From assembly GCA_016844745.1 (NCBI GenBank), contig JAERMQ010000013.1:72530-136529 (forward strand): 64,000 nt of DNA. Direction: 5' to 3'. Positions 403 through 61,497 of the stretch are shown in pieces (position 1 is the stretch's first letter; the number at the start of each line of letters is the position of its first letter). Source of the stretch: Ignavibacteria bacterium. Its GTDB lineage: Bacteria > Bacteroidota > Ignavibacteria > Kapaibacteriales > UBA2268. Position numbers and translations under genes: made by a program. The notes under the pieces are model-generated. The model had not been told where the DNA came from and ran no database searches. It saw nothing but the letters and a program-made list of their open reading frames with translations.

Positions 403-417
403 TCCATAAATCATTTG

Positions 418-30613: not shown

Positions 30614-31909
30614 ATGATAGCTCGTTATACACGCCCGGAAATGGGGACTATATGGTCGGAAGAAAATAAATATTCAATCTGGCTGGAAATTGAAATATTA
30701 GCCTGCGAAGCCCATGCAAACTTAGGACTAATGCCGCAAGAGGATGCGAAAATTATTCGCGAAAAAGCCCGTGTGGATGTCCGGCGAATTGAAGAAATCG
30801 AAGAAACTACGAAGCATGATGTAATTGCGTTCCTAACAAATGTCGAGGAATATGTTGGTGAACCCTCCCGGTATATACATCTCGGCATGACTTCGAGCGA
30901 TGTTTTAGATACTTGCTTTTCAGTGCAGTGCAAACAGGCTGGCGAGCTTATCCTAAAAGACATGGAAGAATTGAGTTCCGTACTTGCCAGCAGGGCTAAA
31001 GAATTCAAATATACAATACAAATCGGGCGTTCGCACGGTATGCACGCTGAGCCGGTCACATTCGGACTGAAATTAGCTCTTTGGTTGGATGAATGTGTAA
31101 GGAACATTGCACGCATGAAAGCCGCAGTAGCGGAAATCTCAGTTGGGAAAATTAATGGAGCAGTCGGCACTTTCGAGCATTTATCTACAGAAGTTGAGAA
31201 GCATGTTTGCGAGAAACTTGGTTTGCAGCCTGCTGCAATCACAACCCAAGTAATCAGCCGTGACCGTTATGCTAATTTCATGTCCGCAATTGCGCTTGTA
31301 GGTTCGCTTATCGAGAAAATTGGTACTGAAATACGCCATCTTCAGCGAACCGAAGTGCGCGAAGCAGAAGAATTTTTCTCGAAAGGGCAGAAGGGGAGTT
31401 CTGCTATGCCGCATAAGCGAAATCCTATTTCCTCGGAGAATATCTGCGGTCAGGCGAGGCTTCTGCGCTCGAATTTAATTGCTGCAATCGAGAATAATGC
31501 GTTATGGCACGAGCGTGATATATCCCATAGCAGCGTGGAGCGCGTGATTTTCCCGGATTCCACAATTTCCTTGGATTATATTTTGCAGCGTACGATTAGA
31601 CTTATCGATAAATTAGTTGTTTATCCGGAACGCATGAAAGAGAATTTGGAATCTTCCAAAGGATTGATATTCTCTCAGAAGGTACTGTTGGAGCTTGCTA
31701 AGAAAGGCATTAAACGTCAATTAGCTTATGAATTGGTGCAGGCATCGGCTATGCGAACAATCAATGAAGGCAATGGCTTTTTGCAGAGCTTGCTTGATAA
31801 TGCAGAATTGATGCAGCATTTCAAGGAAGATGAGGTTCGTATTTTATTCAATTACGACCAGTTATTCAAAAATGTTGACTTCATTTTTGATAGGTGCGGA
31901 ATTAAATAA
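30614..31909 (+). CDS. purB: Adenylosuccinate lyase
   Basis: Fumarate-lyase superfamily signature GSSAMPHKRNP and full-length similarity in pattern to PurB (431 aa). Confidence 0.85.
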   Translation: MIARYTRPEMGTIWSEENKYSIWLEIEILACEAHANLGLMPQEDAKIIREKARVDVRRIEEIEETTKHDVIAFLTNVEEYVGEPSRYIHLGMTSSDVLDTCFSVQCKQAGELILKDMEELSSVLASRAKEFKYTIQIGRSHGMHAEPVTFGLKLALWLDECVRNIARMKAAVAEISVGKINGAVGTFEHLSTEVEKHVCEKLGLQPAAITTQVISRDRYANFMSAIALVGSLIEKIGTEIRHLQRTEVREAEEFFSKGQKGSSAMPHKRNPISSENICGQARLLRSNLIAAIENNALWHERDISHSSVERVIFPDSTISLDYILQRTIRLIDKLVVYPERMKENLESSKGLIFSQKVLLELAKKGIKRQLAYELVQASAMRTINEGNGFLQSLLDNAELMQHFKEDEVRILFNYDQLFKNVDFIFDRCGIK

Positions 31910-31910
31910 T

Positions 31911-31962
31911 GGTCAATGGTTAATTGTTAATTGTTAATTGATAATTGTTAATGGAGTCTTAT
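31911..31962. repeat. Heptamer microsatellite (ttaattg/ttaatgg units), reverse-complement of the array at 41340-41432
   Basis: aatggtcaatggttaattgttaattgttaattgataattgttaatgg. Confidence 0.7.
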
Positions 31963-32025
31963 CTATCTCAAATTCCGATTTGGGAGAGCAGGTAAAGTAA
32001 CATAGATGAAGTGTTATCTCCTTAC

Positions 32026-32520
32026 TTATTCATTATCTATAGAAGAATTCTTGCGAAGATAAATTAGCAGTTTATACCTAAATATTATTATATAAATCAC
32101 AAAAGGCAGGTAGATATTGAATAATAGGAAATATAATATACCAATTCCATAAATAAAAAGAAAAGAAAAAATCACCATTCCGCAATAAATGTAAAGTGTC
32201 AGAAGCAGGGACTGTATTCGGATGGAGCTAATCTCTACCAATGAGGCTTCGTTGTTTTGCTCGACTTTTTCTTTGGAAAGAGCAATAAAAAACAAACCTG
32301 CAAATGAGAAGATTCCGGCTAATTCTTCAGTGATATTATTATCAATTATAGCAAAAAATTTAGTCTCGAAATACTTCGAATACACTGCGAATACATGGAT
32401 ATCGAGTATTTTCAGTTTATAATCGAAAAAAAGCCTTATAACAGCTAAAATTATCCCGGGAATCAATAAGCAATAACCAACTATTTTCCATTTGTATGAG
32501 AGCAAATCAAGTTTAGGCAT
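32026..32520 (-). CDS. Hypothetical integral membrane protein
   Basis: 164 aa with ~4 hydrophobic helices. No motifs recognised. Confidence 0.35.
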   Translation of the reverse strand: MPKLDLLSYKWKIVGYCLLIPGIILAVIRLFFDYKLKILDIHVFAVYSKYFETKFFAIIDNNITEELAGIFSFAGLFFIALSKEKVEQNNEASLVEISSIRIQSLLLTLYIYCGMVIFSFLFIYGIGILYFLLFNIYLPFVIYIIIFRYKLLIYLRKNSSIDNE

Positions 32521-32549
32521 GATTGGATTTGTTTACATTTTTAAATATA

Positions 32550-32580
32550 GATGTCCTACATCTGCCAGATTTAGGACATC
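32550..32580. repeat. REP-like palindrome, family B (gatgtcctacatctgccagatttaggacatc)
   Basis: 31-bp near-perfect palindrome. Copies at 12157-12187 (perfect) and 22070-22100 (variant gatgtccaacatcttccagatgttggacatc). Confidence 0.8.
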
Positions 32581-32589
32581 TCCAGTCAA

Positions 32590-33258
32590 TTAATTTTTCG
32601 AAAATATATACATACTACCGTTCGAGCCGTCCTCCATTACTAACTGAACGAATACCAATCCATATTTATGGTTGGTTTTGTAAATCACTTTTTTCACTCC
32701 CGGCAGGCTCGTATTGCGCTCGGTAGTTATTGTTTTGAGTAATAACATACCATAAGGAAATTCATCGGTTGAAGACTTGGCTGTGATTTCCCTTGTGATT
32801 GTTTTACCGTCGGAGCGCGTCAATACATACTTATCACCGACACTACAATTATATTTAGCAATGGTATGCGGTTTGTCGTCGGGATTAAGGAAATCCTGAA
32901 TGCCTTCCGAAGTGACTTTGAATTTAATGTCGGAATTGATATTCCCTGCACTATCCTTATACTTTGCAGGGAAGAGGTCGATGATATCTTTCAAATCGGT
33001 ACTAAGTTTTGCAGTATTGACAATGGCTTTAACTGTTACTATACCATTATCATTATTGGTTACCTTTAACGAACCGTCAAAATTAACAGCCCGACCTGCA
33101 ACTGTTATTGACGGAGTAAAAACATTACCTACTTTGGCAAGCGCTACATCGGTACTTCCACCCAAAGTGTTTGGGTCTTCATTCGAGGAATCAACACTAC
33201 ATGAAGCTACAAAAATTATGGAAAAAATAACGAGGAAGAAGTTGTAAATTGCTTTCAT
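32590..33258 (-). CDS. Hypothetical lipoprotein
   Basis: Signal peptide with lipobox (IFVASCS). No other motifs. Start set at MKAIYNFF. Confidence 0.4.
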   Translation of the reverse strand: MKAIYNFFLVIFSIIFVASCSVDSSNEDPNTLGGSTDVALAKVGNVFTPSITVAGRAVNFDGSLKVTNNDNGIVTVKAIVNTAKLSTDLKDIIDLFPAKYKDSAGNINSDIKFKVTSEGIQDFLNPDDKPHTIAKYNCSVGDKYVLTRSDGKTITREITAKSSTDEFPYGMLLLKTITTERNTSLPGVKKVIYKTNHKYGLVFVQLVMEDGSNGSMYIFSKN

Positions 33259-33360
33259 TTGCGCTCTCTCCAAAGTGAACAAATTTGTTAATTGACAATT
33301 ACAACTTAGTTATTTTTAAGATGAAAAACAAGAAAAAGTGGATTGTAAATTTATTTTAAA

Positions 33361-33425
33361 AGGACAGACAGGGATGTCTGTCCTACCATATTAAAAAAAG
33401 TAGAATAGACATCCTTGTCTGTTCA
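33361..33425. repeat. Two CAGAC-core palindromes (aggacagacagggatgtctgtcct; gaatagacatccttgtctgttc), probable terminator hairpins
   Basis: Located at the 3' end of the DUF4337 gene and followed by A/T-rich sequence. The core resembles the RAYT-associated REP (acagacg...cgtctgt). Confidence 0.55.
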
Positions 33426-33974
33426 TCAAAAAAAGATAAAAAAGCCGTTAAAGAAATATAAAATACCGAATGCACCTAATGCCAGGCTTATATACCAAAC
33501 GAATTTCTTTTTCGTTAATGCTGAAATTGATGATAGTAAAATGGAAACCTGAAGGTATATAACGGCTATTCCAAATACTTCCGAGTGAATTTTAGCATCT
33601 TCGGAAATCTGCTCGAAAGCCCGTGCATCTTTTTTAATTTGTTCTTTTTCTTCATCGTATTTTTTTATTTTCTTCGAGTAGGCTTCTATTTTCTTTTCAT
33701 AATCTGTGATTTGTACAGTATTTTTAGAAGTATGTTGGATATCCTGAAGCTCCATTTCGAGCTTATCTTTTTGCATTTCGAAGATATACCCTTTGACACT
33801 TTTGGATTGATAGAAAGCCCATTGGTCTGAGGCTTTTGTTTGGTTCATTAGAGCCCGTGTAGAATATCCTCCTCCTTTGAAAGTAGAGAGAGTAGCGCAT
33901 ACGGCAATCAGGACGGTTGTGATTGCCAAAAATGTAGTCCAGGTTTCTTTTTTTTCGGTTGTTGGTTCGGTCAT
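33426..33974 (-). CDS. DUF4337-family membrane protein (N- and C-terminal TM helices flanking a coiled coil)
   Basis: ASDQWAFYQSK motif and overall architecture typical of DUF4337. Confidence 0.5.
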   Translation of the reverse strand: MTEPTTEKKETWTTFLAITTVLIAVCATLSTFKGGGYSTRALMNQTKASDQWAFYQSKSVKGYIFEMQKDKLEMELQDIQHTSKNTVQITDYEKKIEAYSKKIKKYDEEKEQIKKDARAFEQISEDAKIHSEVFGIAVIYLQVSILLSSISALTKKKFVWYISLALGAFGILYFFNGFFIFF

Positions 33975-33983
33975 TTGTGATTC

Positions 33984-34709
33984 CTATGTTTTGATTTGAG
34001 GGGGTATCCATTTAATAAAATCTTCTCGTTTTGGTGGGTTTTTCATCCATGAAGTATCAGGTATTGGATAAGAGAAGCATTCATTAACAGTTTTTATGTC
34101 TTCCATAATCACAAATTGAATCTTACCGTTTTTACTTGTCCATTTAATTCTTTTGGTTTCTATGATTTTTTTAATTAATAATAATGGCTGCCTAACATCT
34201 TCTTTTAAATATTCCAAAACAGCATCATATTCCCCTTTTGCCCAAAATGATGGTGCTTTAGCGCCATCCATATTATAAATAACAGTGCCGTTTTTTAAAG
34301 TAACTTCCTTTTTCTTCCCTTTTAGCTTACTGCCTTCTAAAGCTGTCTGTAAGCTAAGATAATAACCCACTTGAAATGTGACCCAAAGCATCATATCAAA
34401 ATGATTTAAAGCAAGTTGTCCACAAATATCATAGAGTCCTGATTCTTGGGCAAGAACATGAAAATCAAACGATGTTCCGTTCCATGTCACTATTTTATAT
34501 CCTCCATTGTGAAATTCTAGGAGCATATTAACTAAATCAACGGTTTCATCTTTTGATAATTGGGGAATCCCTTTCCAGATTTTTATTTCATCATTATCAC
34601 TAAAAGCAAGAGCAGCACAAGTGATTCCAAGAGGGGAATACTTTTCCCAAGAGCCGAAATTATTTGGAAATTCTTTTGCAATTTCCAAATCAAAGCAAGC
34701 AAATTTCAT
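33984..34709 (-). CDS. DEDDy-type 3'-5' exonuclease (PolB-exonuclease-like / DnaQ superfamily)
   Basis: Exo I (MKFACFDLE), Exo II (WNGTSFDFHVL) and Exo III (YLKEDV, Y-x3-D) motifs in the correct order and spacing. Confidence 0.55.
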   Translation of the reverse strand: MKFACFDLEIAKEFPNNFGSWEKYSPLGITCAALAFSDNDEIKIWKGIPQLSKDETVDLVNMLLEFHNGGYKIVTWNGTSFDFHVLAQESGLYDICGQLALNHFDMMLWVTFQVGYYLSLQTALEGSKLKGKKKEVTLKNGTVIYNMDGAKAPSFWAKGEYDAVLEYLKEDVRQPLLLIKKIIETKRIKWTSKNGKIQFVIMEDIKTVNECFSYPIPDTSWMKNPPKREDFIKWIPPQIKT

Positions 34710-34933
34710 AAATCACCTATAATAGACATTTTTTTTTTACTATTGATACTGAATTATAAAGGCAATTGAAAAACTAAGAAATAACCGTTAAAATGATTTT
34801 GACTTTGAACATTTCAAAATCCCTTTGTTCTTTTTTCGAAAAGACAGCATTAAACTTATCAAGAATATTTTCTTCATCATCACCTTTGTATGGACTAACG
34901 ATTTGAAAAAATGATAGATTGAATACATATTTT

Positions 34934-35812
34934 TTATACTTCGAATAAACTAACTTCTTGTTCTTTTTTATAGCTTTTTATAATAGCCTGGTTATCAATA
35001 TCCCATATCCTTTTCAAATTATCAGTGTGAATGTAATCGTTATAGTACTTTTCGATAATATCGGATTTACGTATAGTATTAAGTCTATCGTGAATTGTCA
35101 TTACATTTTCCGGGTCTATTTCAATACCGATATAATTTCTTTGTAATTGTTTTGCAACTACCAAAGTTGTTCCGGTTCCTGCAAATGGGTCAAGGATTGT
35201 TTCATAAGGATTTGAGGAAGATAATATCACTCTTAATAATAATGATATCGGAGATTGTTGTTTATGAAATCTATCTCCATTTTCAGTACGAATGGCTTCA
35301 TCCCCAGCGTAATAACCGGATGTCAACTCGCGTATATCATCCCAAACATCAGTTACGAAAACACCGTTTTCATAAGCGTTTTTATAATTAGGTGGCAAGG
35401 GCGGAGAGATTCTTAATTTATTAAATATCCTTGCCTTTTCTCCTTTACAAGCAAAAGCAATTATTTGATAATGTTTGCCAAATTTATTTGAATTGGGGAC
35501 TGCAGAGGTTTTTTTCTTCCAAATAATCAAATTTTGCAATGACCATCCGGTTGTTCTCAAACAATTCAGTACATTCTCAGTATTTTTATCCCTTTGCATA
35601 AAATAAATCGCACCTCCGCTTGAAGTAATATTAAATATTTTAGAACAGACTTCCTTCATCATACTCCAATACTCTAAATCAGAAAGGTTATCATTATGAA
35701 ATCTATAATCCTTGTTTTGATTGAAGGGAGGGTCAAGAAATGTTAAATCAATTTTATCTTCGATTGAAGGTAAAATTTCCAAACAATTGCCATTATATAT
35801 TTTATTTTCCAA
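34934..35812 (-). CDS. DNA methyltransferase, beta-class amino-MTase (N6-adenine or N4-cytosine). No adjacent restriction endonuclease recognised.
   Basis: Motif IV DPPF (IDLTFLDPPFNQ) precedes motif I (ILDPFAGTGTT), the circularly permuted order defining beta-class MTases. Confidence 0.7.
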   Translation of the reverse strand: MENKIYNGNCLEILPSIEDKIDLTFLDPPFNQNKDYRFHNDNLSDLEYWSMMKEVCSKIFNITSSGGAIYFMQRDKNTENVLNCLRTTGWSLQNLIIWKKKTSAVPNSNKFGKHYQIIAFACKGEKARIFNKLRISPPLPPNYKNAYENGVFVTDVWDDIRELTSGYYAGDEAIRTENGDRFHKQQSPISLLLRVILSSSNPYETILDPFAGTGTTLVVAKQLQRNYIGIEIDPENVMTIHDRLNTIRKSDIIEKYYNDYIHTDNLKRIWDIDNQAIIKSYKKEQEVSLFEV

Positions 35813-35864
35813 ATATATCTCTATATAAAAATTATAACCAATATCATATAAATAATTTTATTCA

Positions 35865-36611
35865 TCATTTTAACATTGAAATTGATTTTGGTAATAAATC
35901 TAACTGATTATAATCAAATAATGTTTGATTTATATAAATACTTTGATTTTGAAGCATCAAAAAATTATAAATTTTCGATAATGTTGAGTCTCCAATACCA
36001 CTTACCTTCCTTAATTCAATTATTGTAGAAATATCATTGATATCTAAAGCTTTTTGAATTTTTGAAATAACTCTCGTATCTAAATCAATTTCTTTTTTAA
36101 TATCATTGATTCTTTTTCTCAGCAAATATGCTTTGAAAGTTTCGATTAAATCATCCTTGGAAAACTTATCATATTCATAAATTTCGACGGGTATTTCGCA
36201 TTTGCTTAAATATTCGAACATGATTTCTTTAACAGTTTTAGGGTCTAATCCTCCATTCTGCGCACCTAAAAGAGGAAAAGCAATTGATTCTATTTTTTGC
36301 TCATTATAAGTATCTAAAAATTTTTGAAGACCTTTCGTTAAAAATTCTATTTTGGAAGGAAATCTCCAATGTTTTTTCGTTGGAAAATTTAAAATCCATT
36401 TTTTGTCAGTTTTATAAATCCATAATTTTCCTATTTCAATTTGTTTTGCATCACAAAATTTTACATACTTTTCGTACATATCAGGATATCTATACCTGTA
36501 TTCTAAAGCAATACCGGCTCCCATTTCACCATAACAGTTAACGGTATTAACTAAAGTCTGGTAACCCGATGTGAATAGATTCCCTTTAATGATTTTTATA
36601 TTATTTTTCAT
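35865..36611 (-). CDS. darG: Macro-domain protein, DarG-like antitoxin (ADP-ribosyl hydrolase) with C-terminal HhH-like extension
   Basis: The N-terminal IIKGNLFTSGYQTLVNTVNCYGEMGAGIALEYRYRYP matches the macro-domain ADP-ribose-binding loop (G-D/N-I...VNAAN...GGGV). Sits immediately downstream of darT in the canonical toxin-then-antitoxin order. The C-terminus contains VSGIGDSTLSKI (HhH-like). Confidence 0.6.
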   Translation of the reverse strand: MKNNIKIIKGNLFTSGYQTLVNTVNCYGEMGAGIALEYRYRYPDMYEKYVKFCDAKQIEIGKLWIYKTDKKWILNFPTKKHWRFPSKIEFLTKGLQKFLDTYNEQKIESIAFPLLGAQNGGLDPKTVKEIMFEYLSKCEIPVEIYEYDKFSKDDLIETFKAYLLRKRINDIKKEIDLDTRVISKIQKALDINDISTIIELRKVSGIGDSTLSKIYNFLMLQNQSIYINQTLFDYNQLDLLPKSISMLK

Positions 36612-36613
36612 AT

Positions 36614-37351
36614 TTAATTAAGAGTATTGAAAAAATATTTTTTATTAGTATCAATTACAACCTCAATTTTAGACGAAAAATTCATGAATTCATTTTTCAA
36701 AAATATTTCGGATATAAAATATTTTGAACTTTCATTTGGACAAATAATTTGTGTAATATATTTTATATCAATAGATGGAAATACTAAAACTTCAGCACAC
36801 CTTTTCCTTCTCGTTTCAGCTTGAATGATTTTCACTTCTTCAGATCCTAAATAAGGTTCGTTAACAGCCCAAGTTTTCTGTTTTAATATTAACTCCAAGT
36901 CAAGAAAAAATAAATTATCAATTTCTTTATAAAACCTAGTTTTATCAGCACCAGCATTACCATCCGTAAAATAAACATTAGGTTGATAAATAACTTCTGG
37001 ATTTACAAACAGGACAACTAAATCATCTTGAATATCTTTTCTTTTAAATAACATAGGATTTTTTACCTGAAAATATAAGGAAGCGCAATCATGGAGTTTG
37101 ATATTTGTATCTTTTATATATTTAAATTCTCTTCTATCCTGAATTTCTTTCATAGAAATATCTTGCTTTATTAGCCCTCGTTTGTATGCTTCATTATGTG
37201 ATAGAATGCCATATCTGAGTATATTTTCTACATTATTTTTATGAAGCAAATGTTGAAAATTATGAATATAATAGTTCTTTTTATTAAATCGAATTTTAAT
37301 ACAATTTTGATTTTGATCCGAATCATTTTTATAAAAGAAAATATCATCCAT
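36614..37351 (-). CDS. darT: DarT (DUF4433) ssDNA thymidine ADP-ribosyltransferase toxin
   Basis: N-terminal YYIHNFQHLLHKNNVENILRYGILSHN (cf. DarT YHITHIDNL..IL..G.L.HN), central FTDGNAG (cf. FTDRHAA) and C-terminal RRKRCAEVLVFP (cf. RRRMAEVLVWP with the catalytic Glu) match the DarT family. Confidence 0.7.
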   Translation of the reverse strand: MDDIFFYKNDSDQNQNCIKIRFNKKNYYIHNFQHLLHKNNVENILRYGILSHNEAYKRGLIKQDISMKEIQDRREFKYIKDTNIKLHDCASLYFQVKNPMLFKRKDIQDDLVVLFVNPEVIYQPNVYFTDGNAGADKTRFYKEIDNLFFLDLELILKQKTWAVNEPYLGSEEVKIIQAETRRKRCAEVLVFPSIDIKYITQIICPNESSKYFISEIFLKNEFMNFSSKIEVVIDTNKKYFFNTLN

Positions 37352-37354
37352 TTC

Positions 37355-39223
37355 CTATTTCCCACCCTTCTCCAAAAAGCTTTTGAATTTTTCGATATCG
37401 GCATTGTAAACCTCCGTTGCAATGGTTTTATCATTATTTGAAATGATGGCATATAAAGGTAGCTCTGTTGTTCCGAAGCGGTCTAACTGAAATGAGCGAT
37501 TGCCTAAGTATGGTTGTTCCTTGACATCGGTAATCAATTTCACTTTAACCATTTTATTCATCATCGCTTTGATTTCAGGCTTAACAAAAACCGTTCGCTC
37601 CATTTTCTTGCAATTAGTACAATGTACACCTGTAAAATCAACAAAAATCGATTTTCCCTCGGCTTTTGCCTTTTTAAGAGCTTCCATATAATCCGTTAAC
37701 CAGACATCATCAGGACTTTGAGCTGAAGCTGCTGCCAATGCTTCGGATTGTGGAATAAATGTTTCTAATTCTCCAAGATTTCTTCCGAATAAACCCGATA
37801 GGAAGAAGAATGTCATAGCCGCGAAAATTATCGCAAAGAATAAGCGCATTATTCCAATCCGGTCGATCGGGGAGTCGTGCATTAATTTGAATATGCCTAA
37901 TACATATAGTACCATGAGAAATCCAATACCAGACCATATCGACAGGAATAATTCACGGGAAATACCACTTCCCCATGTGATTAATGCATCATTGAAGAAT
38001 TTGAGCGAAACTGCAACGATTATAAATCCCATGACTCCTTTTATATTATTCATCCAGCCGCCGGCTCTGGGCATTTTATTTAATGCTGCGGGGAAGAGCG
38101 CAAGGAGGAAAAAAGGGAAAGCTAAAACCGATGAAAAAGCTAACATACTAATGGTCGGAGCGAACCAATCACCACTTGCAGCAGCACCTAATGCAGCAGC
38201 TACATGAGGTCCGACACAGGAAAAAGATGCCATCGAAAATGTCAATGCCATAAGAATAACGCTGAATATCCCCTGTCCTTCCTGGGACTTCGCATTTAAT
38301 TTATTCATTATTCCGGTTGGAAGCTGAATTTCAAACATCCCGAATAGGTTCAAACCGAAAAAGATGCAGATTGCTCCAATGAAAAAGTAAACATAAGGAT
38401 TGGTTGCAAAGTCCTGTACACCTGTCTTACCGAAGAGTAAAGAAAATACAACACCTATAAAGGTAAAAGTAACGATAATACCGATGGCATAAACCAAAGC
38501 ATCACGCAAACCTTTACCTTTGGATTTCTCTGCACGATTAGTGAAAAATGAAATTGTAATCGGTACCATTGGATACACGCAAGGCATGAGTAAAGCCAAA
38601 GCGCCCATAGTTAGCGATATCCATATATAATCGAATATACTTTCTTTTTCTTCGATGGGTTTTTCTTCCTTTTTCATGGATTCTACTTGCTGAGGTGTTG
38701 CCTCCGAGATTGATGCAGTTTCAGATGGTTGATAAACTTCGGCTGAAATAGCGGTTTTGAAATCTTCAGGCGGCAGGCAGGTAGTGCCTGTACACAATTG
38801 AAGATATGTAACGACAAATACACAATCCCTAACAAAATTTATATTTTTTAAAGCTTTGGAGGGTATCTCAAAAACCTGGTTTCCCTCATAGAATTTAACA
38901 TCCATTTCGAAACCTTCATCGCGTTCTTTTTTAGGCTTTGGGGCTCTTATATTGCCGTTTAAGGAAACCATTTCCTTAGGCTCCAAAGAAATTTCGGTTT
39001 GTAATGGACCTATTCCTTCTTTATTCAATTGCTCATCGAGTGAGTATGTATGATAATCCTTGTCAAGCATCATTGAAAGTTTAATTGAAAACGCTTCACC
39101 TTCTTTCACCTCTGATTTCGAAGGCTGAGCCTTGAATTTGACAAATTTTTGCTGACCAAAAGAATTACCGCTAAATATAAAAAACAATGCTGATATAATG
39201 CTCAAAACAAATAGCTTTCTCAT
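37355..39223 (-). CDS. dsbD: Thiol:disulfide interchange protein DsbD (N-terminal periplasmic domain + cytochrome-c-biogenesis transmembrane core + C-terminal thioredoxin domain)
   Basis: Multi-pass TM core, C-terminal thioredoxin CxxC (VHCTNCKKME), N-terminal signal peptide. 622 aa. Confidence 0.75.
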   Translation of the reverse strand: MRKLFVLSIISALFFIFSGNSFGQQKFVKFKAQPSKSEVKEGEAFSIKLSMMLDKDYHTYSLDEQLNKEGIGPLQTEISLEPKEMVSLNGNIRAPKPKKERDEGFEMDVKFYEGNQVFEIPSKALKNINFVRDCVFVVTYLQLCTGTTCLPPEDFKTAISAEVYQPSETASISEATPQQVESMKKEEKPIEEKESIFDYIWISLTMGALALLMPCVYPMVPITISFFTNRAEKSKGKGLRDALVYAIGIIVTFTFIGVVFSLLFGKTGVQDFATNPYVYFFIGAICIFFGLNLFGMFEIQLPTGIMNKLNAKSQEGQGIFSVILMALTFSMASFSCVGPHVAAALGAAASGDWFAPTISMLAFSSVLAFPFFLLALFPAALNKMPRAGGWMNNIKGVMGFIIVAVSLKFFNDALITWGSGISRELFLSIWSGIGFLMVLYVLGIFKLMHDSPIDRIGIMRLFFAIIFAAMTFFFLSGLFGRNLGELETFIPQSEALAAASAQSPDDVWLTDYMEALKKAKAEGKSIFVDFTGVHCTNCKKMERTVFVKPEIKAMMNKMVKVKLITDVKEQPYLGNRSFQLDRFGTTELPLYAIISNNDKTIATEVYNADIEKFKSFLEKGGK

Positions 39224-39298
39224 AAATATCCTTTATTATTTTTATAATTTATAATTATTTTCAAAATACTATTTCTGTAAAAAGTTTGATTAATCTGG

Positions 39299-39372
39299 AA
39301 TGTCATTCTGAACAAAGTGAAGAATCCAGAAGCAGTATTGGGACTGGATTCTTCACTTCGTTACCAATGACA
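39299..39372. repeat. Hairpin element, family A (aatgtcattctgaacaaagtgaagaatcc / ggattcttcacttcgttaccaatgacag)
   Basis: Inverted arms around a 17-bp spacer, between dsbD and hprK. Both are minus-strand genes, so a terminator role is possible. Confidence 0.75.
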
Positions 39373-39472
39373 GATTTTTCTTATGATTCACACAGCCTCA
39401 TTCGCAGAAATGACATCTTTAATTTTTAAACCTCATGCAAAATTATTAATTAGTAATTATTAATTAGTAATG

Positions 39473-40495
39473 TTATTCCTTATCGCTTTGCAGCCAGGTA
39501 ATATTTCTCTGACCATGAAATGTAGCTTTAGGACCTGACCGTTTCGATATAGAATCGGTTAATTTATCGGAAAATACCTTAGCTGCATTATATCCGTAAG
39601 TTCTCAAAAGGTAATTTATTGCAATAACCTCAGCTATAACAGTAATGTTTTTTCCAGGTAATATCGGCAAACGAACTGATTGAATTTCAACGCCCATAAT
39701 TGCAGCAGGTTCCTCGTCCAGACCGGTTCGATTGTAGTCTGCTTTATCATCCCATTCCTCTAAACGGACTATTATCTCGAGGCGCTTCTGATAACGAATC
39801 GAACGAATCCCGAACATTTGGCGTATATCAATAATACCTAATCCGCGAATTTCCATGAAATGCTGCACCATACTTGTTCCGGTGCCCATAATAATTGCTT
39901 CGCCTTTTTTAATTAACATTACAATATCATCGGCAACAAGACGGTGACCACGCTCAACCAAGTCGAGCGCTACCTCGCTTTTTCCTATGCCGCTCTTACC
40001 AATGAATAAAATTCCTACTCCATAAACATCAACGAATGAACCGTGAACAACAACCTGGCTTGCGAACTGGTCTTCCAAAAAATCAGACATCAAATACATT
40101 GCCTTTGTAGTGTCGTAGGGTGTTGTGAGTACGGCAACATTGTTTGCTGATGCAAGTTTTATTAATTCAGGTTCCAGTGTTCTGCCGTTTGTCAGAACAA
40201 TGCAGGGAATTGGGAACTGCAGTATCGTCTTGAATGCTTTGATTCTTTGTTTGTTATTCAAAGAACGCAAAAAGAAATGCTCTGTATTTCCAATAATCTG
40301 TACCCGGTCGAAACTGAAAAGTCCTACCCATCCGGCTAAAGCAAGCTGTGGGCGTGATAAATTTTTATTTGTAATTTTATTTTTCATACCAACATCTAGA
40401 AGCGGTTTTAGTTGGCACGGCGATTTCATCAGTTCTTCAACTAAAATTTTATCCGATTGAAGGACCTGGAGATTATCGAATTTGTCAAATTTCAT
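39473..40495 (-). CDS. hprK: HPr kinase/phosphorylase
   Basis: Walker A GKSGIGKSE and signature LVADD...IRG.G.ID. Confidence 0.85.
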   Translation of the reverse strand: MKFDKFDNLQVLQSDKILVEELMKSPCQLKPLLDVGMKNKITNKNLSRPQLALAGWVGLFSFDRVQIIGNTEHFFLRSLNNKQRIKAFKTILQFPIPCIVLTNGRTLEPELIKLASANNVAVLTTPYDTTKAMYLMSDFLEDQFASQVVVHGSFVDVYGVGILFIGKSGIGKSEVALDLVERGHRLVADDIVMLIKKGEAIIMGTGTSMVQHFMEIRGLGIIDIRQMFGIRSIRYQKRLEIIVRLEEWDDKADYNRTGLDEEPAAIMGVEIQSVRLPILPGKNITVIAEVIAINYLLRTYGYNAAKVFSDKLTDSISKRSGPKATFHGQRNITWLQSDKE

Positions 40496-40884
40496 GTTTT
40501 CTTATCATTTGTATAATAAATTATTACAAAAATAAACGAATTAGGATTAATTAAATTTGAAAATTTGTAACTTCTCAGCAATTAAGTATATAAAAAAATG
40601 ATTTAAGAACGAGGATTAACGATTTATGATTTATGATTTCGTACATGGCTTTTGAACACCCTTCTGTGCAGTTACGATGATTTCTACTATCTATACCGCA
40701 AAATTAATTAATCGTTTTTCCAGATTGTGTTTATTCATATAATTACTTTTTATTCCTGTTTGCTTTCTTCTAAAATCTTAAATCGTAAATCCTTGTTTGA
40801 TATTCATTCCTGCTGAGTAGTTACAAAAATGTTAATAATTTGGTTTTGACATAAAAAAAGGGGCTTTTAAAAGCCCCTTTGGAT

Positions 40885-41182
40885 TTATGATGTTAATACT
40901 TTACTGTGTTTCGTTTTTAATTTGTTTAATTGGCGAACCATCTTATCTGTTGCCCCGTTTAAGCTTTTGTGAAAGTCATCGGAACTATGTTTTGAAGCAA
41001 GGGTAGAGCCTTGTACATGGACGGTAAACTCAACGGTTTTTTCCGAGTCATTGATAAACTCCACATTAGATGAAATTATATCATCGTAGTACTTGGAAAA
41101 ACCCGATGATGATTCGATAGCTGCCTCGTGTAAGTCCGGGTGCTGTGATTTGAAATGTCTGAATGTTACATTAGTTTTCATA
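40885..41182 (-). CDS. hpf: Ribosome hibernation-promoting factor / ribosome-associated inhibitor (HPF/RaiA family)
   Basis: MKTNVTFRHFKS...LHEAAIE...VEFTVHVQG pattern of the sigma-54-modulation/YfiA family. Start set to the internal MKTNV. Confidence 0.8.
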
Positions 41183-41278
41183 ACAACCTCTGCATATCTA
41201 ATAAAATTAATAAAATATACCTGGTGAAACACTGATATTCTCAATATTTCTACCACTTCCATTTAATAATTACGGATT

Positions 41279-41336
41279 ATGAATTAGGGTCTTGGTTTTG
41301 GGGTATAGGGTTTAGGGTTTGGGGTATAGGATATAA
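41279..41336. repeat. G-rich telomere-like tandem repeat (TTAGGGT / TTTGGGGT units)
   Basis: attagggtcttggttttggggtatagggtttagggtttggggtatagg contains ≥5 G3-4 tracts (G-quadruplex-capable) on the plus strand, i.e. the non-template side upstream of hpf. Confidence 0.7.
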
Positions 41337-41339
41337 TTT

Positions 41340-41432
41340 AAACCAGTAACCATTAACCATTGACCATTAACCATTACCTTTAACAATTAACCATTAATAA
41401 TTAACCATTAAAAATTAACCATTAACAATTGA
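41340..41432. repeat. Heptamer microsatellite (aaccatt/aacaatt/aaccatt...), ~12 units
   Basis: aaccagtaaccattaaccattgaccattaaccattacctttaacaattaaccattaataattaaccattaaaaattaaccattaacaattg is the reverse complement of the short array at 31911-31962. Confidence 0.8.
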
Positions 41433-41536
41433 GTTTCATAATCCGGATTTTCCGTATTATTTCAAAGAACACTTTTTTATCTTTTAATAATTATCGTTAA
41501 TATATAAAAATAATTTATCTAAGTCAAGAAATTTTT

Positions 41537-42346
41537 TTATTTTGGCTGTTGACTATAATCAATTTGCGAACCCAACACACTATGTGGAATAAGGAAAATT
41601 GCTATTTGTACCACTGCTGCAGCAATAATCCAACCTTTTGCTGGAGGATTTTTCCTCATTCGCCAAAGTGCTATAAACCACATTGCAAGTGAAATAAATG
41701 TTTTATTATCCGTTAAATCGTGACCAAAGGGCCAACCCGTCCAATAAGCTCCGAAGGCATATTTCTGCATAATGGGACCAAAGACCATACCACCCAGAAT
41801 AAGGAAACCTAAAGTCCAAAGCAACAATTTAAATGAATTATTTCGATTAAGCATGGCTTCAATACCGGTTCTGGTTGAAAGTACCATTGAAAAGAAAATA
41901 AAGAATACGTGTAATACGAGAATACCTGTGGGAACGGCTCCTTTATAACGAAGAATTGCCGGGGTTTCATTTATTATAACTTCTTTTCCTGTTTCAGGTT
42001 TCAATATCACATGATACATAATTTTACCGGCAGCATCAAGCTGAGGAAGGGAAAAGGTGAGTGAATCGACCTTGCGAACCATATCAACAGTTTGAAAGGG
42101 GTCTTGACTCGGATGCCTTTTGAATTTCACAAATCCATTTACACTTTTATCAGGTACGAAAATCGAGACCGGAGCCGGTGAACCGGTGTTATAGGTTCTT
42201 AAAAGAATAAAATCTATATTTTGAGAATTTATCGTTACTGAACCGGAAATCGGATAGGTTGGTCCGGTCATGCGTTGATAAATTCCGAAAGCAGCCATAA
42301 GTATTATACATATAGTCCAAATGCCTATTGTTTTAAATTTATTCAT
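41537..42346 (-). CDS. Hypothetical integral membrane protein (N-terminal TM, periplasmic-like domain, 4-5 C-terminal TM helices)
   Basis: Hydrophobicity pattern only. No recognisable catalytic motifs. Confidence 0.35.
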   Translation of the reverse strand: MNKFKTIGIWTICIILMAAFGIYQRMTGPTYPISGSVTINSQNIDFILLRTYNTGSPAPVSIFVPDKSVNGFVKFKRHPSQDPFQTVDMVRKVDSLTFSLPQLDAAGKIMYHVILKPETGKEVIINETPAILRYKGAVPTGILVLHVFFIFFSMVLSTRTGIEAMLNRNNSFKLLLWTLGFLILGGMVFGPIMQKYAFGAYWTGWPFGHDLTDNKTFISLAMWFIALWRMRKNPPAKGWIIAAAVVQIAIFLIPHSVLGSQIDYSQQPK

Positions 42347-42441
42347 TCATTTCCTTTATATATGGTTAGAAATTCAATATTAATAATATTTCAACTTTGA
42401 GATTCTAAATTAAAAATTGAAATTGTCTCAATAGTCAAGAA

Positions 42442-42521
42442 GAATGTCATTCGTAAGCGAAGTGAAGAATCCAGAAATAGCATTGGGAATGGATTCTTCA
42501 CTTCGCTTACGAATGACATTC
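42442..42521. repeat. Hairpin element, family A (gaatgtcattcgtaagcgaagtgaagaatcc / ggattcttcacttcgcttacgaatgacattc)
   Basis: 31-bp perfect inverted arms separated by an 18-bp loop. Lies 3' of the membrane-protein gene / 5' region of metH. Confidence 0.85.
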
Positions 42522-42596
42522 TTCCATTTTTTAGATTAATAAAACAAAATAATTTTTTTTTATAATAATTCATAACTTATAATTCATAACTCATAA

Positions 42597-45500
42597 TTAC
42601 TTATAACTAATAAGGTGATTTAAAAACTTTTCAGCCACTTCCAAACTAATCCCTTTACGCCTGCGGTAATCGTTGGTTTGTGCAAAATCAATTTTGCCGA
42701 CAGGAAAATACTTCGATTCCGGATTAGCGAAATAAAATCCGCTGACTGATGCAGCAGGTTGCATCATAAAGTTTTCTGTCAATTCTATTCCAACATTCTT
42801 CCGGATATTAAGCAAATCAAATATAACAGCATTTACAGATTGGTCGGGAAGTGATGGATAACCCGCTGCCGGTCTTATACCGGAATATTTCCCTGACAGT
42901 AAATCATCTATAGATTGCTCTTTTTCAATGGAATATCCCCAGATTTCATTCCGAACTTTTTTATGCAGTAATTCGGCAAAAGCTTCAGCCAGGCGGTCAG
43001 CTAATGCTTGTGATATTATACTTCTATAATCGTCGCCTTCAGCTCTATATTTTTCGGATAGAGCAGCAGAGCCAATTCCTGCTGTCAATGCAAATGCACC
43101 GATATAGTCATCTATTTCAATTCCGGCAGTAGCTATGAAATCCGCTAAAGAAAGATACGGACTATTTTCCGATGTTTTTAATTCTTGTTGTCGGAGTGTA
43201 TGCAGAACTTTCGAAATTCCATGTCGAGTATCATCTGAATATATTTCAATATCATCGTCGGATACAGTATTTGCTGGGAATATACCAACTGCTGCATTGG
43301 CTTTCAGAAGCTTTCCGGAGATAATTTCATCCAGAAGCAAGTTAGCTTCAAAGAATAATTTCCTTGCTTCTTCTCCTTTTTCAGGATGTTCGAATACAGC
43401 CGGATACCGGCCTTTAATATCCCAAAGAAGAAAAAATTGAGTCCAGTTGATATATTTCCTGATTTCCTCTAACGGATAATCATGAAAAAGGGTAATTCCT
43501 GTTTTTATTGGTTTTTTTATATCTGAGTTTGACCAATCAATTCTCTTTTTCTTTTTCCTGGCATCCAGTAGGCTTACCAGCTTTTTCTTTGCCGTATTGT
43601 TCAGGTAATTTTCCCTCAACTCGGTGTATTCTTTACGTTTTGAATCAACGAATGTCTGCTTGCCTGTTTCTGATAATAAACTACTGACGACAGGTACACT
43701 CTTTCCTGCATCAGTTACATGTACAACAGGCTGTGAATATGCCGGAGCTATTTTAACCGCCGTATGCATTCTCGATGTAGTTGCTCCGCCAATTAAAAGT
43801 GGTAGTTTGACGTTGTTTTTCTCAAGCATTGCTGCTACATTAATCATCTCTTCGAGCGATGGAGTAATAAGCCCTGATAAACCAATAACATCAACCTGGT
43901 TTGCCTGTGCTTGCTGAATGATTTTTTCGGCAGGAACCATTACGCCGAGGTCAATTACTTCATAATTATTGCATGCAAGCACAACTCCAACAATATTTTT
44001 ACCAATATCATGTACGTCGCCTTTGACGGTTGCTAACAGCACTTTGCCTGCTTTTTGTTTTCCGGATACAGTAAGTTCCTCTGTTAAGAATGGAGTTAAA
44101 TAAGCAACCGATTTCTTCATTACACGAGCACTTTTGACAACCTGTGGCAAAAACATCTTTCCTGAACCGAATAATTCGCCAACCTGCTCCATTCCTTTCA
44201 TCAAGGTACCTTCAATAACGGCTAATGAGTTGCTCGATTCTTTGCGGAGTTCTTCGGTATCAGCTTCAATATAAGTATCATTACCTTTAATCATGGAATA
44301 AATCAACCGTTCGGTAGGGGGGAGGCTTCGCCATTCTTCCTGTTTTACCGCATCCTGAACCGTAGCAGTAAGTCCGGTCGAATATTCTGTTAATCGCTCT
44401 GTTGCATCATTCCGACGATTGAAAATTACATCTTCGATTAAATCGCGTAACTCTTTAGGAACTGCTTCATAAACATCCAATTGAGCAGGATTAACTATTC
44501 CCATATCCAAACCGGCTTGTACGGCATGATATAGAAATACAGAATGAAATGCTTCACGAACGGGATTATTGCCTCTGAATGAAAATGAAATATTGCTTAT
44601 GCCGCCGCTGGTCGATACTCCCGGCAAATTTGTTTTGACCCACCTGACTGCTTCCAAATAATTTACAGCATATTCTGAGTGTTCTTCTATACCTGTAGCT
44701 ACGGTTAAAATATTGGGGTCGAAAATTATGTCCTGTGGCGGAAATCCGATTTCATCGACTAAAATATTATATGAACGTTGAATTATATCAATTTTATTCT
44801 TAGTAGTTACTGCCTGACCTGTTTCATCGAATGCCATAACGACAACGGCAGCGCCTAATTTGCGAATGATTTTCGCTTTTTCTTTGAATTTCTCTTCGCC
44901 TTCTTTCAGGGAAATTGAGTTAACGATACCCTTTCCTTGAATACACTTTAAGCCTGCTTCCAGAATATCCCAATTGGAGGAATCAATCATAACGGGCACG
45001 CGGCTTATATCGGGTTCGGCAGCAATTAAATTGAGGAATTTCTTCATAGATTCGATGCCGTCTAACATAGCTTCGTCCATACTTACATCTATTATCTGAG
45101 CGCCGCCTTCTACCTGCTGACGAGCAACACTTAAGGCTTCATCGAATTTTCCGTCAATAATTAATTTTTTGAATTTGATGGAACCCGCTACATTTGTACG
45201 TTCACCGATATTTACAAAATTAATTTCCTGACGGAAGACAAGGGGCTCCAATCCGCTTAATCTCAAATATTTCGGAACATCGGGAATAATGCGAGGTTTG
45301 TATCGTGCCGCTGTTTCGCTGATGAGTTGAATATGTTCGGGAGTTGTGCCACAGCAGCCGCCTAAAATATTTACTAATCCATCGCCGGCATATTCTTCGA
45401 TGATTTTTGCCATTATGTCGGGTGTTTCGTCGTATCCACCAAAGGAATTAGGCAATCCGGCATTGGGATAGAGACTTGTAAAGTGAGGTGTAATTTTTGA

Positions 45501-46277
45501 TAACTCCTCGATATATGGTTTCATTTGTTCGGTGCCAAGCGCACAATTCAATCCGACGCTTAATAAATACGGTGTATGGGCAATAGAAATAAGGAATGCT
45601 TCCAAAGTCTGACCTGATAATGTCCTGCCACTCTGGTCGGTTATAGTACCGGAAATCATTATCGGCAATGAATTTCCGCTTTGCTCAAAGTATTGGGAAG
45701 CAGCGTTAATAGCAGCTTTGCAATTAAGTGTATCGAAGATAGTTTCTATAAGTAGAATATCAGCACCGCCTTCAGCCAAACCTCGGATTTGTTCATAATA
45801 TGCAGTCACGAAATCATCAAAATAAAAGCGTCGAAAGCCCGGACGCTCTACATCGGGCGACATCGAAGCAGATTGATTTGTCGGACCGATAGCGCCGGCT
45901 ACGAATCTGGGTTTGTCGTTAAATTCATTTGCAACCTGCCGGGCTATTTTAGCAGATTCGTAGTTAATTTGAAAAACTAAGCTTTCAAACTTATAATCCA
46001 ACTGTGAGAGTCCATTGGCATTGAATGTATTTGTTTCGATAATATCAGCGCCGGCTTGCAGGTATTTGCGATGAATTTCCTTTATAGCTTCGGGTTGTGT
46101 CAGTGATAAAATATCGTTATTGCCTTTGATGTCGTAATCGAGATTACGGAATTGTTCACCGCGGAAGTCCTGTTCTGTCAAGCCGAGCCTTTGAATCATC
46201 GTGCCCATAGCGCCGTCGAGGACTAATATTCTTTCTTGAAGTATTTTATATAAAGTGTTGAATTTATTATTAAGCAT
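42597..46277 (-). CDS. metH: Cobalamin-dependent methionine synthase
   Basis: 1226 aa with the Hcy-binding (S-methyltransferase) domain, pterin-binding domain, B12-binding [10 protein letters not shown] motif, and C-terminal AdoMet-activation domain. Confidence 0.9.
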
Positions 46278-60407: not shown

Positions 60408-61356
60408 ATTTACTCTTGAATTCGAAAAACCGATTTTCGAATTGGAAAAGAAAATCGACGAAATGCGGCAGTTGTCTGTCGATTCGCTCGATTTAACTGA
60501 AGAAATCAGCGTTTTGGAAAAAAAAGTGGAAGAACTACGTCTTTCTATTTATAAGAACTTAACACGTTGGCAAAGAGTTCAAATTGCTCGTCATCCGGAA
60601 CGTCCTTTAACATCAGATTATATTGAAAATATTTTTACCGATTTCGTTGAATTATTCGGTGACCGTAATGTGCGGGACGACCCTGCCATAATAGGTGGAA
60701 TGGCTCAATTCAACGGAGAATCGGTTATGGTAATCGGGCATCAAAAAGGCAGGGATACAAAAGGCAATATTCATAGAAATTTCGGTATGCCTCATCCCGA
60801 AGGTTATAGAAAAGCGTTGCGTTTAGTTAAATTAGCCGAAAAATTCCGAAAACCTGTATTTACTTTCATTGATACACCTGGCGCTTTCCCGGGTATTGAA
60901 GCTGAGGAACGTGGTCAAGCCGAAGCAATTGCCCGGAATCTGTTTTCTTTTTCGAGCCTGAAAGTTCCGATTATTGTAATTATTATAGGTGAGGGAGCCT
61001 CTGGTGGCGCTATTGGTATTGCAGTTGGTGACAGGATACTTATGCTGGAAAATGCATGGTATTCGGTTATATCGCCTGAATCATGCTCTTCGATTTTATG
61101 GCGAAGCTGGGATTACAAGGAAACAGCAGCCGAAGCTTTGCAATTAACAGCGCCGGATTTGAAGCATCAGGGAATAATAGATACCATTGTTCCGGAACCG
61201 GTAGGTGGCGCTCATCGAAATCCAAATGAAATGTTCTCCATTCTTAAGGACGTTTTAACTGTGGAATTGAATAGTCTCAGGAAAATTGCACCTGAGGAAT
61301 TGGTAAAACAACGTCGGGAGAAGTTCTATTCGATGGGTGTGTATAATGAGATTTGA
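60397..61356 (+). CDS. accA: Acetyl-CoA carboxylase carboxyltransferase alpha subunit
   Basis: [15 protein letters not shown]...[26 protein letters not shown] probable GTG start at 60397 ([11 protein letters not shown]) would overlap the upstream gene by 11 nt. The ORF-track start at 60313 adds an implausible leader. Confidence 0.85.
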
Positions 61357-61367
61357 GAATATAAAAA

Positions 61368-61442
61368 TTAAGAGAAACCCCCTAACCCCCTTTGAAAAAG
61401 GGGGAATTTATTATTCCACCTTTTTCAAAGGGGGTTAGGGGG
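61368..61442 (+). terminator. Strong rho-independent terminator / long palindrome after accA
   Basis: aaaccccctaaccccctttgaaaaaggggg ... cctttttcaaagggggttagggggttt forms a ~28-bp stem followed by ttttcttt. Confidence 0.7.
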
Positions 61443-61497
61443 TTTTTCTTTGTATATTGAATTAAATTGACAATTTTATTAACTAAACAAGAAAAAT

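Follow-up and report, generated by a model that had tools for sequence, protein, structure and literature searches.

Since 1990, tandem arrays of 7-nt units have posed an unsolved puzzle in the architecture of bacterial genomes, where a few lineages have them in abundance and strictly in non-coding DNA. Two such arrays, one of G-rich units and one of AACCATT-type units, lie upstream of hpf, the gene of a ribosome hibernation factor, in the genome of an Ignavibacteria bacterium, which raises the question of whether they form a device dedicated to the control of this gene, as an earlier note on this DNA had supposed, or belong to a wider population of repeats. In this study, we have addressed the question in the window, i.e. 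the whole 64-kb stretch of DNA that was analysed, in related genomes, and in a collection of species-representative genomes. We find that the arrays are members of the known class of heptanucleotide simple-sequence repeats (STRR/LSSR), and that nothing indicates a dedicated hpf switch; they are probably lineage-specific spacer DNA that was generated by slippage and has now decayed, and any effect that they have on hpf would be incidental.

The genes and sequence elements of the locus are collected in Table 1. Pfam identities agree for hpf, hprK, dsbD and purB, and the labels that the earlier note had given to hpf and purB are correct. The membrane protein encoded on the 5' side of hpf is 100% identical to HW421_1233, and its nearest homolog is 56% identical; the stop codon of its gene lies 106 nt ahead of the AACCATT array. 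In the public annotation hpf is a 125-aa ORF that starts at 41262. We have placed the start at the ATG at 41181, which is preceded by GAGG; since the homologs of hpf are 92-117 aa long (mostly 94-107 aa), and the N-termini of the relatives' proteins align with MKTNVTF, the spacer on the 5' side of hpf is 355 nt long (41182-41536).

Table 1. Genes, heptamer arrays and other sequence elements around hpf and purB (positions in the window)
Feature	Position	Strand	Evidence or remark
purB	30614-31909	+	Pfam
TAATGGT/TAATTGT array, 7 units, AACCATT family (reverse complement)	31907-31955	+	direct reading, Tandem Repeats Finder (TRF), period scan
dsbD	37355-39223	-	
AATTATT/AATTAGT array	39441-39471	+	period-14 identity 1.0; 1 nt after hprK stop codon (39473-39475, - strand)
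hprK	39473-40495	-	
Short ATGATTT-type array, hpf-hprK spacer	40614-40639	+	TRF; partly complementary to the AAATCGT array
Short AAATCGT array, hpf-hprK spacer	40773-40791		partly complementary to the array at 40614-40639
Intrinsic terminator-like hairpin with T-run, strong	40857-40880	-	terminator scan; directly 3' of hpf
hpf (HPF/RaiA, 98 aa)	40885-41181	-	Pfam Ribosomal_S30AE, E = 3.6e-13
Inverted repeat, left arm, perfect 11 nt, CGGATTATGAA	41273-41283	+	abuts the array block
G-rich heptamer array, 7 units	41284-41332	+	direct reading, TRF
Canonical G-quadruplex (G4) motif, GGGGTATAGGGTTTAGGGTTTGGGG	41300-41324	+	four G3+ tracts, loops of 1-7 nt; G4Hunter 2.0
AACCATT/AACAATT heptamer array, 13 units	41341-41430	+	TRF, 13.0 copies, 78% matches
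Inverted repeat, right arm, TTCATAATCCG on the + strand	41435-41445	-	4 nt past the last heptamer
Candidate sigma-70-like site, TTGACT-17-TATATT	41499-41527	-	10 of 12 positions match; upstream of both arrays
269-aa membrane protein, co-directional 5' neighbour of hpf	41537-42346	-	without a Pfam family
ATAATTC/ATAACTY array	42565-42596	+	period-14 identity 0.94; abuts metH stop codon (42597-42599, - strand)
metH	42597-46277	-	

Both arrays upstream of hpf have been confirmed by direct reading and by TRF. The seven G-rich units read, in order, TTAGGGT, CTTGGTT, TTGGGGT, ATAGGGT, TTAGGGT, TTGGGGT and ATAGGAT; TRF describes them with a period of 7 (6.7 copies, 70% matches) or of 21 (2.2 copies, 88% matches), and the array has a 21-nt higher-order unit, with an identity of 0.82 at period 21 vs 0.69 at period 7. 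The AACCATT array, for which the earlier note had given about 12 heptamers, contains 13 units, including six exact AACCATT, two AACAATT and one unit of 6 nt; its sense (-) strand reads AATGGTT/AATTGTT, and it lies ~160 nt from the hpf start codon. The right half of this array is a 14-nt superunit, (AACCATTAANAATT)x3, with an identity of 0.91 at period 14 vs 0.76 at period 7. The higher identity at 14 and 21 nt than at 7 nt is as expected if point mutations had diversified the units before blocks of two or three of them were duplicated by later slippage or unequal exchange.

In tandem, TTAGGGT spells out the plant-type telomere repeat, (TTTAGGG)n, and the array had been called telomere-like. 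The likeness is one of units only: unlike a telomere, the array is internal, has only two exact TTTAGGG units, is flanked by bacterial genes, lies beside an unrelated heptamer array and is at no linear end, and we have rejected a telomere or eukaryotic contamination on these grounds.

Arrays of period 7 are not confined to the spacer of hpf. The window contains five period-7 runs, vs 0-1 for the other periods among 4-12, whereas 200 block shuffles that preserve its composition average 0.085 such runs; likewise, the pattern (AAHMATT)x4 has four matches in the window vs none in 100 shuffles. Arrays are borne by five of the 35 spacers that measure 40 nt or more, all of them located at 31.9-42.6 kb, and the maximal period-7 score reaches 9 within ORFs vs 10-26 in these five spacers. 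All the arrays in the window are non-coding, three of them adjoin stop codons (those of purB, hprK and metH), and several unrelated units coexist, namely AACCATT, TTAGGGT, AATTAGT, ATAACTC and ATGATTT. We have asked whether the arrays cluster in this region because a replication origin is nearby, and have dropped the idea, as there is no dnaA or dnaN near the GC-skew minimum. The reverse-complement array reported after purB exists and has seven units, with its borders at 31907-31955 instead of 31911-31962; it overlaps the end of the gene, the purB stop codon being inside its first unit. On the sense strand of purB this array reads AATKGTT, and the arrays of purB and hpf thus have the same sense orientation (AATGGTT/AATTGTT), so that they are mirrored, as had been stated, in plus-strand coordinates only.

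In most prokaryotic genomes, the commonest of the long simple-sequence repeats (LSSR) were found to be heptanucleotide ones, for which polymerase slippage has been proposed (Mrazek et al. 2007, as related in PMC4679880). In heterocystous cyanobacteria, such repeats have been described under the name STRR. TAACTGA repeats have been described in the Beggiatoaceae, fifteen Cyanobacteria and five Bacteroidetes, where they are intergenic, strain-specific and often share a spacer with other heptamers (MacGregor 2015, PMC4679880); 7-nt indels distinguish such arrays in Cyanothece strains, and an RNA-level role has been proposed for the TAACTGA repeats (PMC4679880). Like this STRR/LSSR/TAACTGA class, the arrays studied here consist of head-to-tail 7-nt units in 3 to more than 10 copies, are strictly intergenic and often touch start or stop codons, come with several units per genome that are mixed within one spacer, make period 7 predominant at several loci (within the 64-kb window), and have a sporadic distribution centred on Cyanobacteria and Bacteroidota. 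They differ from the published reports in their host, an Ignavibacteria metagenome-assembled genome (MAG) from a lineage that those papers do not list, and in their units, which are AACCATT/AACAATT and TTAGGGT in the window vs CCCCAGT, TTGGTCA and TAACTGA in the class. Furthermore, the hpf arrays are degenerate and distal to the start codon, whereas the TAACTGA sets of the Beggiatoaceae are start-proximal. The claim of a feature special to the hpf promoter does not hold, since heptamer arrays occur in five spacers of the window and the class is widespread and has already been described.

The reach of the AACCATT family was assessed by scanning the species-representative genome collection for AACMATT-N7-AACMATT-N7-AACMATT, which matched at least 120 loci; the window's own genome is absent among the matches listed, and the taxa were counted by hand from the record titles. 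Among the matches listed, at least 56 loci belong to Bacteroidota, at least 31 to Cyanobacteria, at least five to Gammaproteobacteria (including Thioploca and a Guaymas MAG), at least four each to Planctomycetota, Firmicutes and Patescibacteria, at least three each to Acidobacteriota and Chloroflexota, at least two to Ignavibacteria, at least one each to Calditrichota, Cloacimonadota and Desulfobacterales, and at least five are unclassified. This distribution mirrors that reported in PMC4679880. In the 862 kb around the matches listed there are 340 period-7 runs, vs 7-24 for any other period, which means that each match locus averages nearly two further heptamer arrays, of many units. Of the 130 AACMATT arrays among the matches listed, 96 could be placed between two ORFs, and none of these lay within an ORF. 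A looser pattern, (AAHMATT)x4, was discarded as too unspecific, as it matched AT-rich viral contigs; the stricter AACMATT pattern matched 46 stretches of viral contigs.

We have compared the hpf locus with that of related genomes. The closest homologs of hpf are 64-70% identical. In relative L253 the genes are likewise arranged as hpf-hprK-dsbD, and the spacers measure 120 (5' of hpf), 91 and 35 nt vs 355, 389 and 249 nt in the window; the spacer on the 5' side of hpf measures 133 nt in L255-L257 and 35 nt in L258, and the gene on the 5' side of hpf is not homologous between genomes. Neither heptamer arrays nor the G-rich element was found 5' of hpf in these examined relatives (L253, L255-L258), and the extra spacer length in the window is made up of heptamer arrays and palindromic elements. 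Since hpf works in relatives without the arrays, these are lineage-specific additions; as the relatives are distant, with an hpf that is 68% identical or less, the comparison makes a conserved regulator of ancient origin less likely but does not speak against one acquired recently. Among Ignavibacteria-like genomes the occurrence of heptamer arrays is sporadic: they are present in L205, L223 (CCCTAAT/TCCTAAT units) and L249, with mixed units in L205 and L223, and none was found in L123, L247, L250, L252, L253, L255 and L258.

The HMW adhesin genes of Haemophilus influenzae carry 7-bp repeats, and the earlier note regarded heptamer arrays as classic contingency elements. Changes in heptamer number by slipped-strand events would then switch or grade the expression of hpf. 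There are precedents for such an effect: TTTTGAT heptads grade expression at the ctxAB promoter of Vibrio cholerae (10.1101/2021.05.14.444153), intergenic repeats are found 5' of Haemophilus influenzae genes (PMC12721329), and the Cyanothece strains mentioned above differ by 7-nt indels (PMC4679880). Like these repeats, the hpf arrays are tandem 7-nt units 5' of a gene, the copy number of which could in principle change spacing or binding. The hpf arrays are outside any reading frame, and the candidate sigma-70-like site is upstream of them. However, the arrays of Vibrio and Haemophilus are pure, strain-variable and have known protein or RNase partners, whereas the units at hpf are degenerate (70-78% alike), and both hpf arrays have 15 nt, or about two units, as their longest perfect tandem tract. 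In other genomes, arrays of at least 80 nt have a median perfect tract of 40 nt. Judging from the general behaviour of simple-sequence repeats, tracts as impure as those at hpf should slip rarely. Furthermore, hpf is a housekeeping stress gene, not one of surface or host-interaction function, and the repeat-associated genes in the genomes studied show no bias towards surface functions. The Logan assembly of SRR13434397, which comes from the same single sample, is base-for-base identical at the hpf and purB loci; these independent contigs rule out an assembly artefact, and the Logan contig is unbranched through both hpf arrays, which argues weakly against heterogeneity. With a longest perfect tract of 15 nt and relatives whose hpf lacks the arrays, the description as a classic contingency element fits poorly, and we consider a slipped-strand switch at hpf very improbable.

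The earlier note had also pointed to a possible G-quadruplex in the promoter of hpf, and the sequence of the G-rich array bears out the motif itself. At least five G-tracts had been claimed, and we have counted five runs of three or more G, starting at 41287, 41300, 41308, 41315 and 41321. Four of them form GGGGTATAGGGTTTAGGGTTTGGGG, which is the sole G3+N1-7 motif in the 64 kb when both strands are counted (0.015 expected from shuffles) and passes G4 prediction, its G4Hunter score having been obtained in a 25-nt window; the fifth tract, at 41287-41289, is outside this motif. The G-rich array is 103-151 nt on the 5' side of the hpf start and 22 nt from the long ORF of the public annotation. 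Its G-rich strand is the + strand, i.e. the template strand for hpf, so that any RNA copied from it would be rich in C and incapable of folding as a G4, which leaves only a G4 in the template-strand DNA as a possibility. As predicted from its letters, the block could fold as an intramolecular G4 of the template strand in unwound DNA. The promoter part of the earlier claim is unproven, as the scans placed no promoter.

It is conceivable that this putative G4 is a cis-regulator, which would block read-through or modulate promoter opening and so tune hpf in stationary phase. In addition to the uniqueness of the motif in the window, its five G-tracts and its G4Hunter score, this idea draws on the position of the motif-bearing array on the non-coding strand, 103-151 nt from the start, with no terminator predicted ahead of the gene, and on the finding that the G-rich heptamers GGGAATC and GGGGAYT of Xanthomonas and Nostoc adopt a G4 structure in vitro (Rehm et al. 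2015, PMC4692102). The Xanthomonas and Nostoc heptamers favour the gaps that separate co-directional ORFs, where they occupy either the non-coding strand just 5' of an ORF or the coding strand just past a stop codon; they are mostly transcribed, and have no link to surface genes (PMC4692102). That the block at hpf obeys the G4 rules and is on the non-coding strand 5' of an ORF, as favoured by these heptamers, counts against the explanation that we prefer. The hpf array resembles them in having one G3-4 tract and a spacer of 3-4 nt per unit, at least four tracts, co-directional flanking ORFs with the G-rich non-coding strand 5' of the ORF, and a wider population of heptamers around it. It is built on the same design with another sequence, T(T/A)(A/G)GGGT vs GGGNATC/GGGGA(C/T)T, and it is 103 nt from the start codon vs at most 50 nt for the published type, the favoured distance class of which is 0-50 bp. 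In addition, the G4 at hpf is a predicted one, a single instance in 64 kb of a genome of 35% GC, whereas the published heptamers fold in vitro. On the other hand, the G-rich element is lacking 5' of hpf in the relatives, the authors of PMC4692102 identified no regulatory role, and the hpf promoter was not placed by our scans. The block is, furthermore, a single variant among the products of a heptamer process that acts across the genome: in 967 kb of loci from other genomes and from relatives, 25 of the 56 G4 motifs are G-rich heptamer arrays, with units such as GGGGACA, GGGAATT, GGGCATT and GGGTAAT, and the telomere-like block is thus an ordinary G-rich variant of the class. We therefore hold a regulatory G4 to be unlikely, and note that the sole plausible locus-specific effect of the arrays, which is unproven, is that of a putative G4 braking read-through or modulating promoter opening.

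Whether the arrays might act in RNA depends on the transcription of the spacer. The terminator scan predicted no intrinsic terminator between the gene of the 269-aa protein and hpf, and the arrays are therefore probably transcribed, by read-through or in a long leader. The candidate sigma-70-like site upstream of them would, if used, give a leader of ~310 nt that contains both arrays; the scan found 13 such sites where 11.4 are expected, i.e. matches are no commoner than in shuffles. A consensus scan 5' of hpf found neither a Bacteroidetes-type -7 box (TAnnTTTG) nor a sigma-54 consensus. The putative hpf transcript would probably carry C-rich and AAUGGUU repeats, and on the sense strand of the AACCATT array seven AUGs begin mini-ORFs that are 4-25 codons long. 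Taken as a whole, the leader has a fold modestly better than that of shuffles (z = -2.7), with part of the gain coming from self-pairing of the TTAA-rich array and part from the stem of the inverted repeat described below. A cruciform or hairpin joining the G-rich and AACCATT arrays was discarded, as the DNA folds show no advantage over shuffles (z = +0.88 and +0.42). No Rfam families were detected in the arrays at the gathering or E <= 1 thresholds. A gene remnant suspected in the hpf-hprK spacer was dropped, since it has no NCBIfam match.

The AACMATT arrays of other genomes show a preferred orientation. Among the matches listed, those between co-directional ORFs are in the sense orientation in 43 cases vs 16 antisense (p = 6e-4), and often lie 0-15 nt ahead of a start codon; the direction of the bias is common to Bacteroidota, Cyanobacteria and the rest, the ORFs having been called crudely and the directions of transcription and replication being inseparable. 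The AACCATT array of hpf has the minority orientation. This preference hints at selection on some arrays, or at a bias linked to transcription or replication, and speaks against the explanation that we prefer.

These observations bear on the possibility that the arrays, transcribed in a long leader or an intercistronic RNA, bind a single-strand RNA-binding protein such as S1, Csp or a CsrA-like one, or that the upstream AUGs set the translation of hpf. The lack of a predicted terminator before hpf, the candidate sigma-70-like site 5' of the arrays, the AUGs with their mini-ORFs and the strand bias in other genomes are all consistent with it, as is the proposal of such a role for TAACTGA (PMC4679880) and for the heptamers near recF/recO in Nostoc, where heptamer blocks are reported to affect the expression of recF/recO reporters, with no partner known (preprint 10.1101/2022.06.06.494920). 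However, the array of hpf has the minority orientation at ~160 nt from the start, whereas the arrays elsewhere are start-proximal; it is not conserved in the relatives, and the fold of the leader is only modestly better than that of shuffles. An RNA-level control of hpf by the arrays accordingly appears to us quite unlikely. A bolder reading may be drawn from the recurrence of AACMATT across lineages, its avoidance of ORFs, the 43:16 bias and its adjacency to start codons, which together could mean that a conserved trans-acting factor, either a single-stranded nucleic-acid-binding protein or a shared property of the polymerase, reads or makes AACMATT; the double array of hpf, with its template-strand G4 and its bracketing inverted repeat, would then be a regulatory module that sets the expression of hpf at the entry into stationary phase. 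We give this reading little credence.

One feature of the locus finds no account in slippage, and counts against the explanation that we prefer: the array block at hpf is bracketed by an inverted repeat, the perfect 11-nt arms of which extend to 16 nt at 88% complementarity (left arm 41268-41283). Inverted repeats of at least 11 nt flank 0.7% of 283 array blocks, vs 0.02% of permuted flank pairs, and six of the blocks have one of at least 9 nt; as a general trait of arrays the inverted repeat was rejected, there being a slight excess only among the 283 blocks. It is thus no property of the class, and is unlikely to have arisen by chance. The inverted repeat may be an old hairpin with a loop filled by heptamers, or the remnant of a small element. 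In the latter case 41268-41450 would be a MITE- or REP-like remnant with its interior filled by heptamers, for which the arms at both ends of the block (0.0002 per array by chance) and the presence of other palindromic spacer elements in the genome would speak. However, the window contains no other exact copy of the 11-mer and no target-site duplication is evident, and the rarity of such repeats among the 283 blocks shows that the association is not general, so that we regard a mobile element as a highly improbable source of the block.

The explanation that we prefer, i.e. slippage-generated spacer DNA, can be outlined as follows. Replication slippage or unequal exchange would create the arrays and change their length in multiples of 7 nt, and the arrays would be tolerated solely where they break no reading frame. 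At hpf they would mainly be spacer DNA, which would have extended the upstream region from ~35-133 nt to 355 nt. The newest growth of the arrays was by duplication of 14- or 21-nt blocks, and those at hpf have since diverged to the point where about two perfect units are left.

The hpf locus adds Ignavibacteria to the lineages with heptamer arrays, and in one spacer it joins a G4-capable unit to an AT-rich one that is also present in Bacteroidota and Cyanobacteria. For annotation, it matters that the arrays hold stop codons in all frames, often set the apparent ends of ORFs and inflate spacers. Such arrays should not be taken as gene-specific switches without population data, and for the biology of hpf itself they are of little importance unless an effect on its expression is shown.

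The five spacers of the window that carry arrays all fall within 11 kb (31900-42600), where they make up half of the 10 spacers present, and arrays are found in none of the window's 25 remaining spacers; by a rough estimate, the probability of such clustering by chance is about 1%. The double array upstream of hpf, which consists of G-rich heptamers followed by AACCATT heptamers, is enclosed as a whole by a perfect inverted repeat, and flanking repeats of this kind are not typical of heptamer arrays.

In public annotation, hpf (HW421_1232, "hypothetical protein") encodes 125 aa from a start at 41262. This start is probably 27 codons too early: homologs are mostly 94-107 aa long and begin with MKTNVTF, and the ATG at 41181 has a GAGG in front of it. 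The hairpin predicted in the leader appears in its minimum-free-energy fold only. On the other side of hpf, the hpf-hprK spacer (40496-40884) extends over 389 nt, compared with 91 nt in L253, an Ignavibacteria-like genome that keeps the hpf-hprK-dsbD order. The imperfect inverted repeat within this spacer consists in part of short heptamer arrays placed in inverted orientation (ATGATTT x3 and AAATCGT x3), and a search of the short ORF-like stretch at ~40640-40745 (-) against NCBIfam returned no match.

Sequence features of the window (window positions)
Feature	Position	Strand	Details
tmRNA gene	415-778	-	Rfam RF00023, 172.6 bits
Long palindromic spacer elements, one family	16324-16402; 39301-39372; 42439-42524		common core GTCATTC...AGTGAAGAATCC / GGATTCTTCACT...GAATGAC
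45/90-nt tandem repeat	20926-21141		TRF: 4.7 and 2.4 copies; period 90, 94% matches
Imperfect inverted repeat, 54-nt	40564-40617 / 40774-40827		74% complementary; within hpf-hprK spacer
Predicted hairpin, 14-bp	41222-41255	-	UGGUAGAAAUAUUGA...UCAGUGUUUCACCA; 41-74 nt upstream of hpf start
Perfect 11-nt inverted repeat	41273-41283 and 41435-41445		CGGATTATGAA; both sides of double array
Long hairpin	61364-61456		arms each of two 8-nt direct repeats, (AACCCCCT)x2 ... (AGGGGGTT)x2

Among the matches listed from the genome collection (L127-L246), the AACMATT strand was sense to co-directional flanking ORFs in 43 cases and antisense in 16 (p = 6e-4), a bias whose direction was alike in Bacteroidota, Cyanobacteria and other phyla. 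Many of these listed arrays end 0-15 nt ahead of a start codon, and none lies inside an ORF. A stricter AACMATT pattern was also matched by 46 IMG/VR contig stretches (L261-L301 and others), giant-virus MAGs included. Positions 4127-4435 of L223, which is also an Ignavibacteria MAG, hold a REP-like hairpin flanked by two mutually inverted heptamer arrays, one of AAGAATT/AGGAATT and a longer one of AATTCCT/AATCCCT units. The inverted pairing of heptamer arrays may be a recurring layout. Paired inverted heptamer arrays are also seen in L178, a further locus of the collection.

The long hairpin at the far end of the window lies close to the end of a 1,090-nt spacer without genes (60408-61497). 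The GTCATTC/GAATGAC palindromes constitute a REP-like family, in which the element starting at 42439 forms a perfect stem of 35 bp; the hairpin beside the L223 arrays is similar (GTCATTCCCGC...GCGGGAATCC). Downstream of hprK and metH, two members of the family have heptamer arrays at a distance of 70-100 nt, and the palindromes could serve as terminators or RNA stabilisers.
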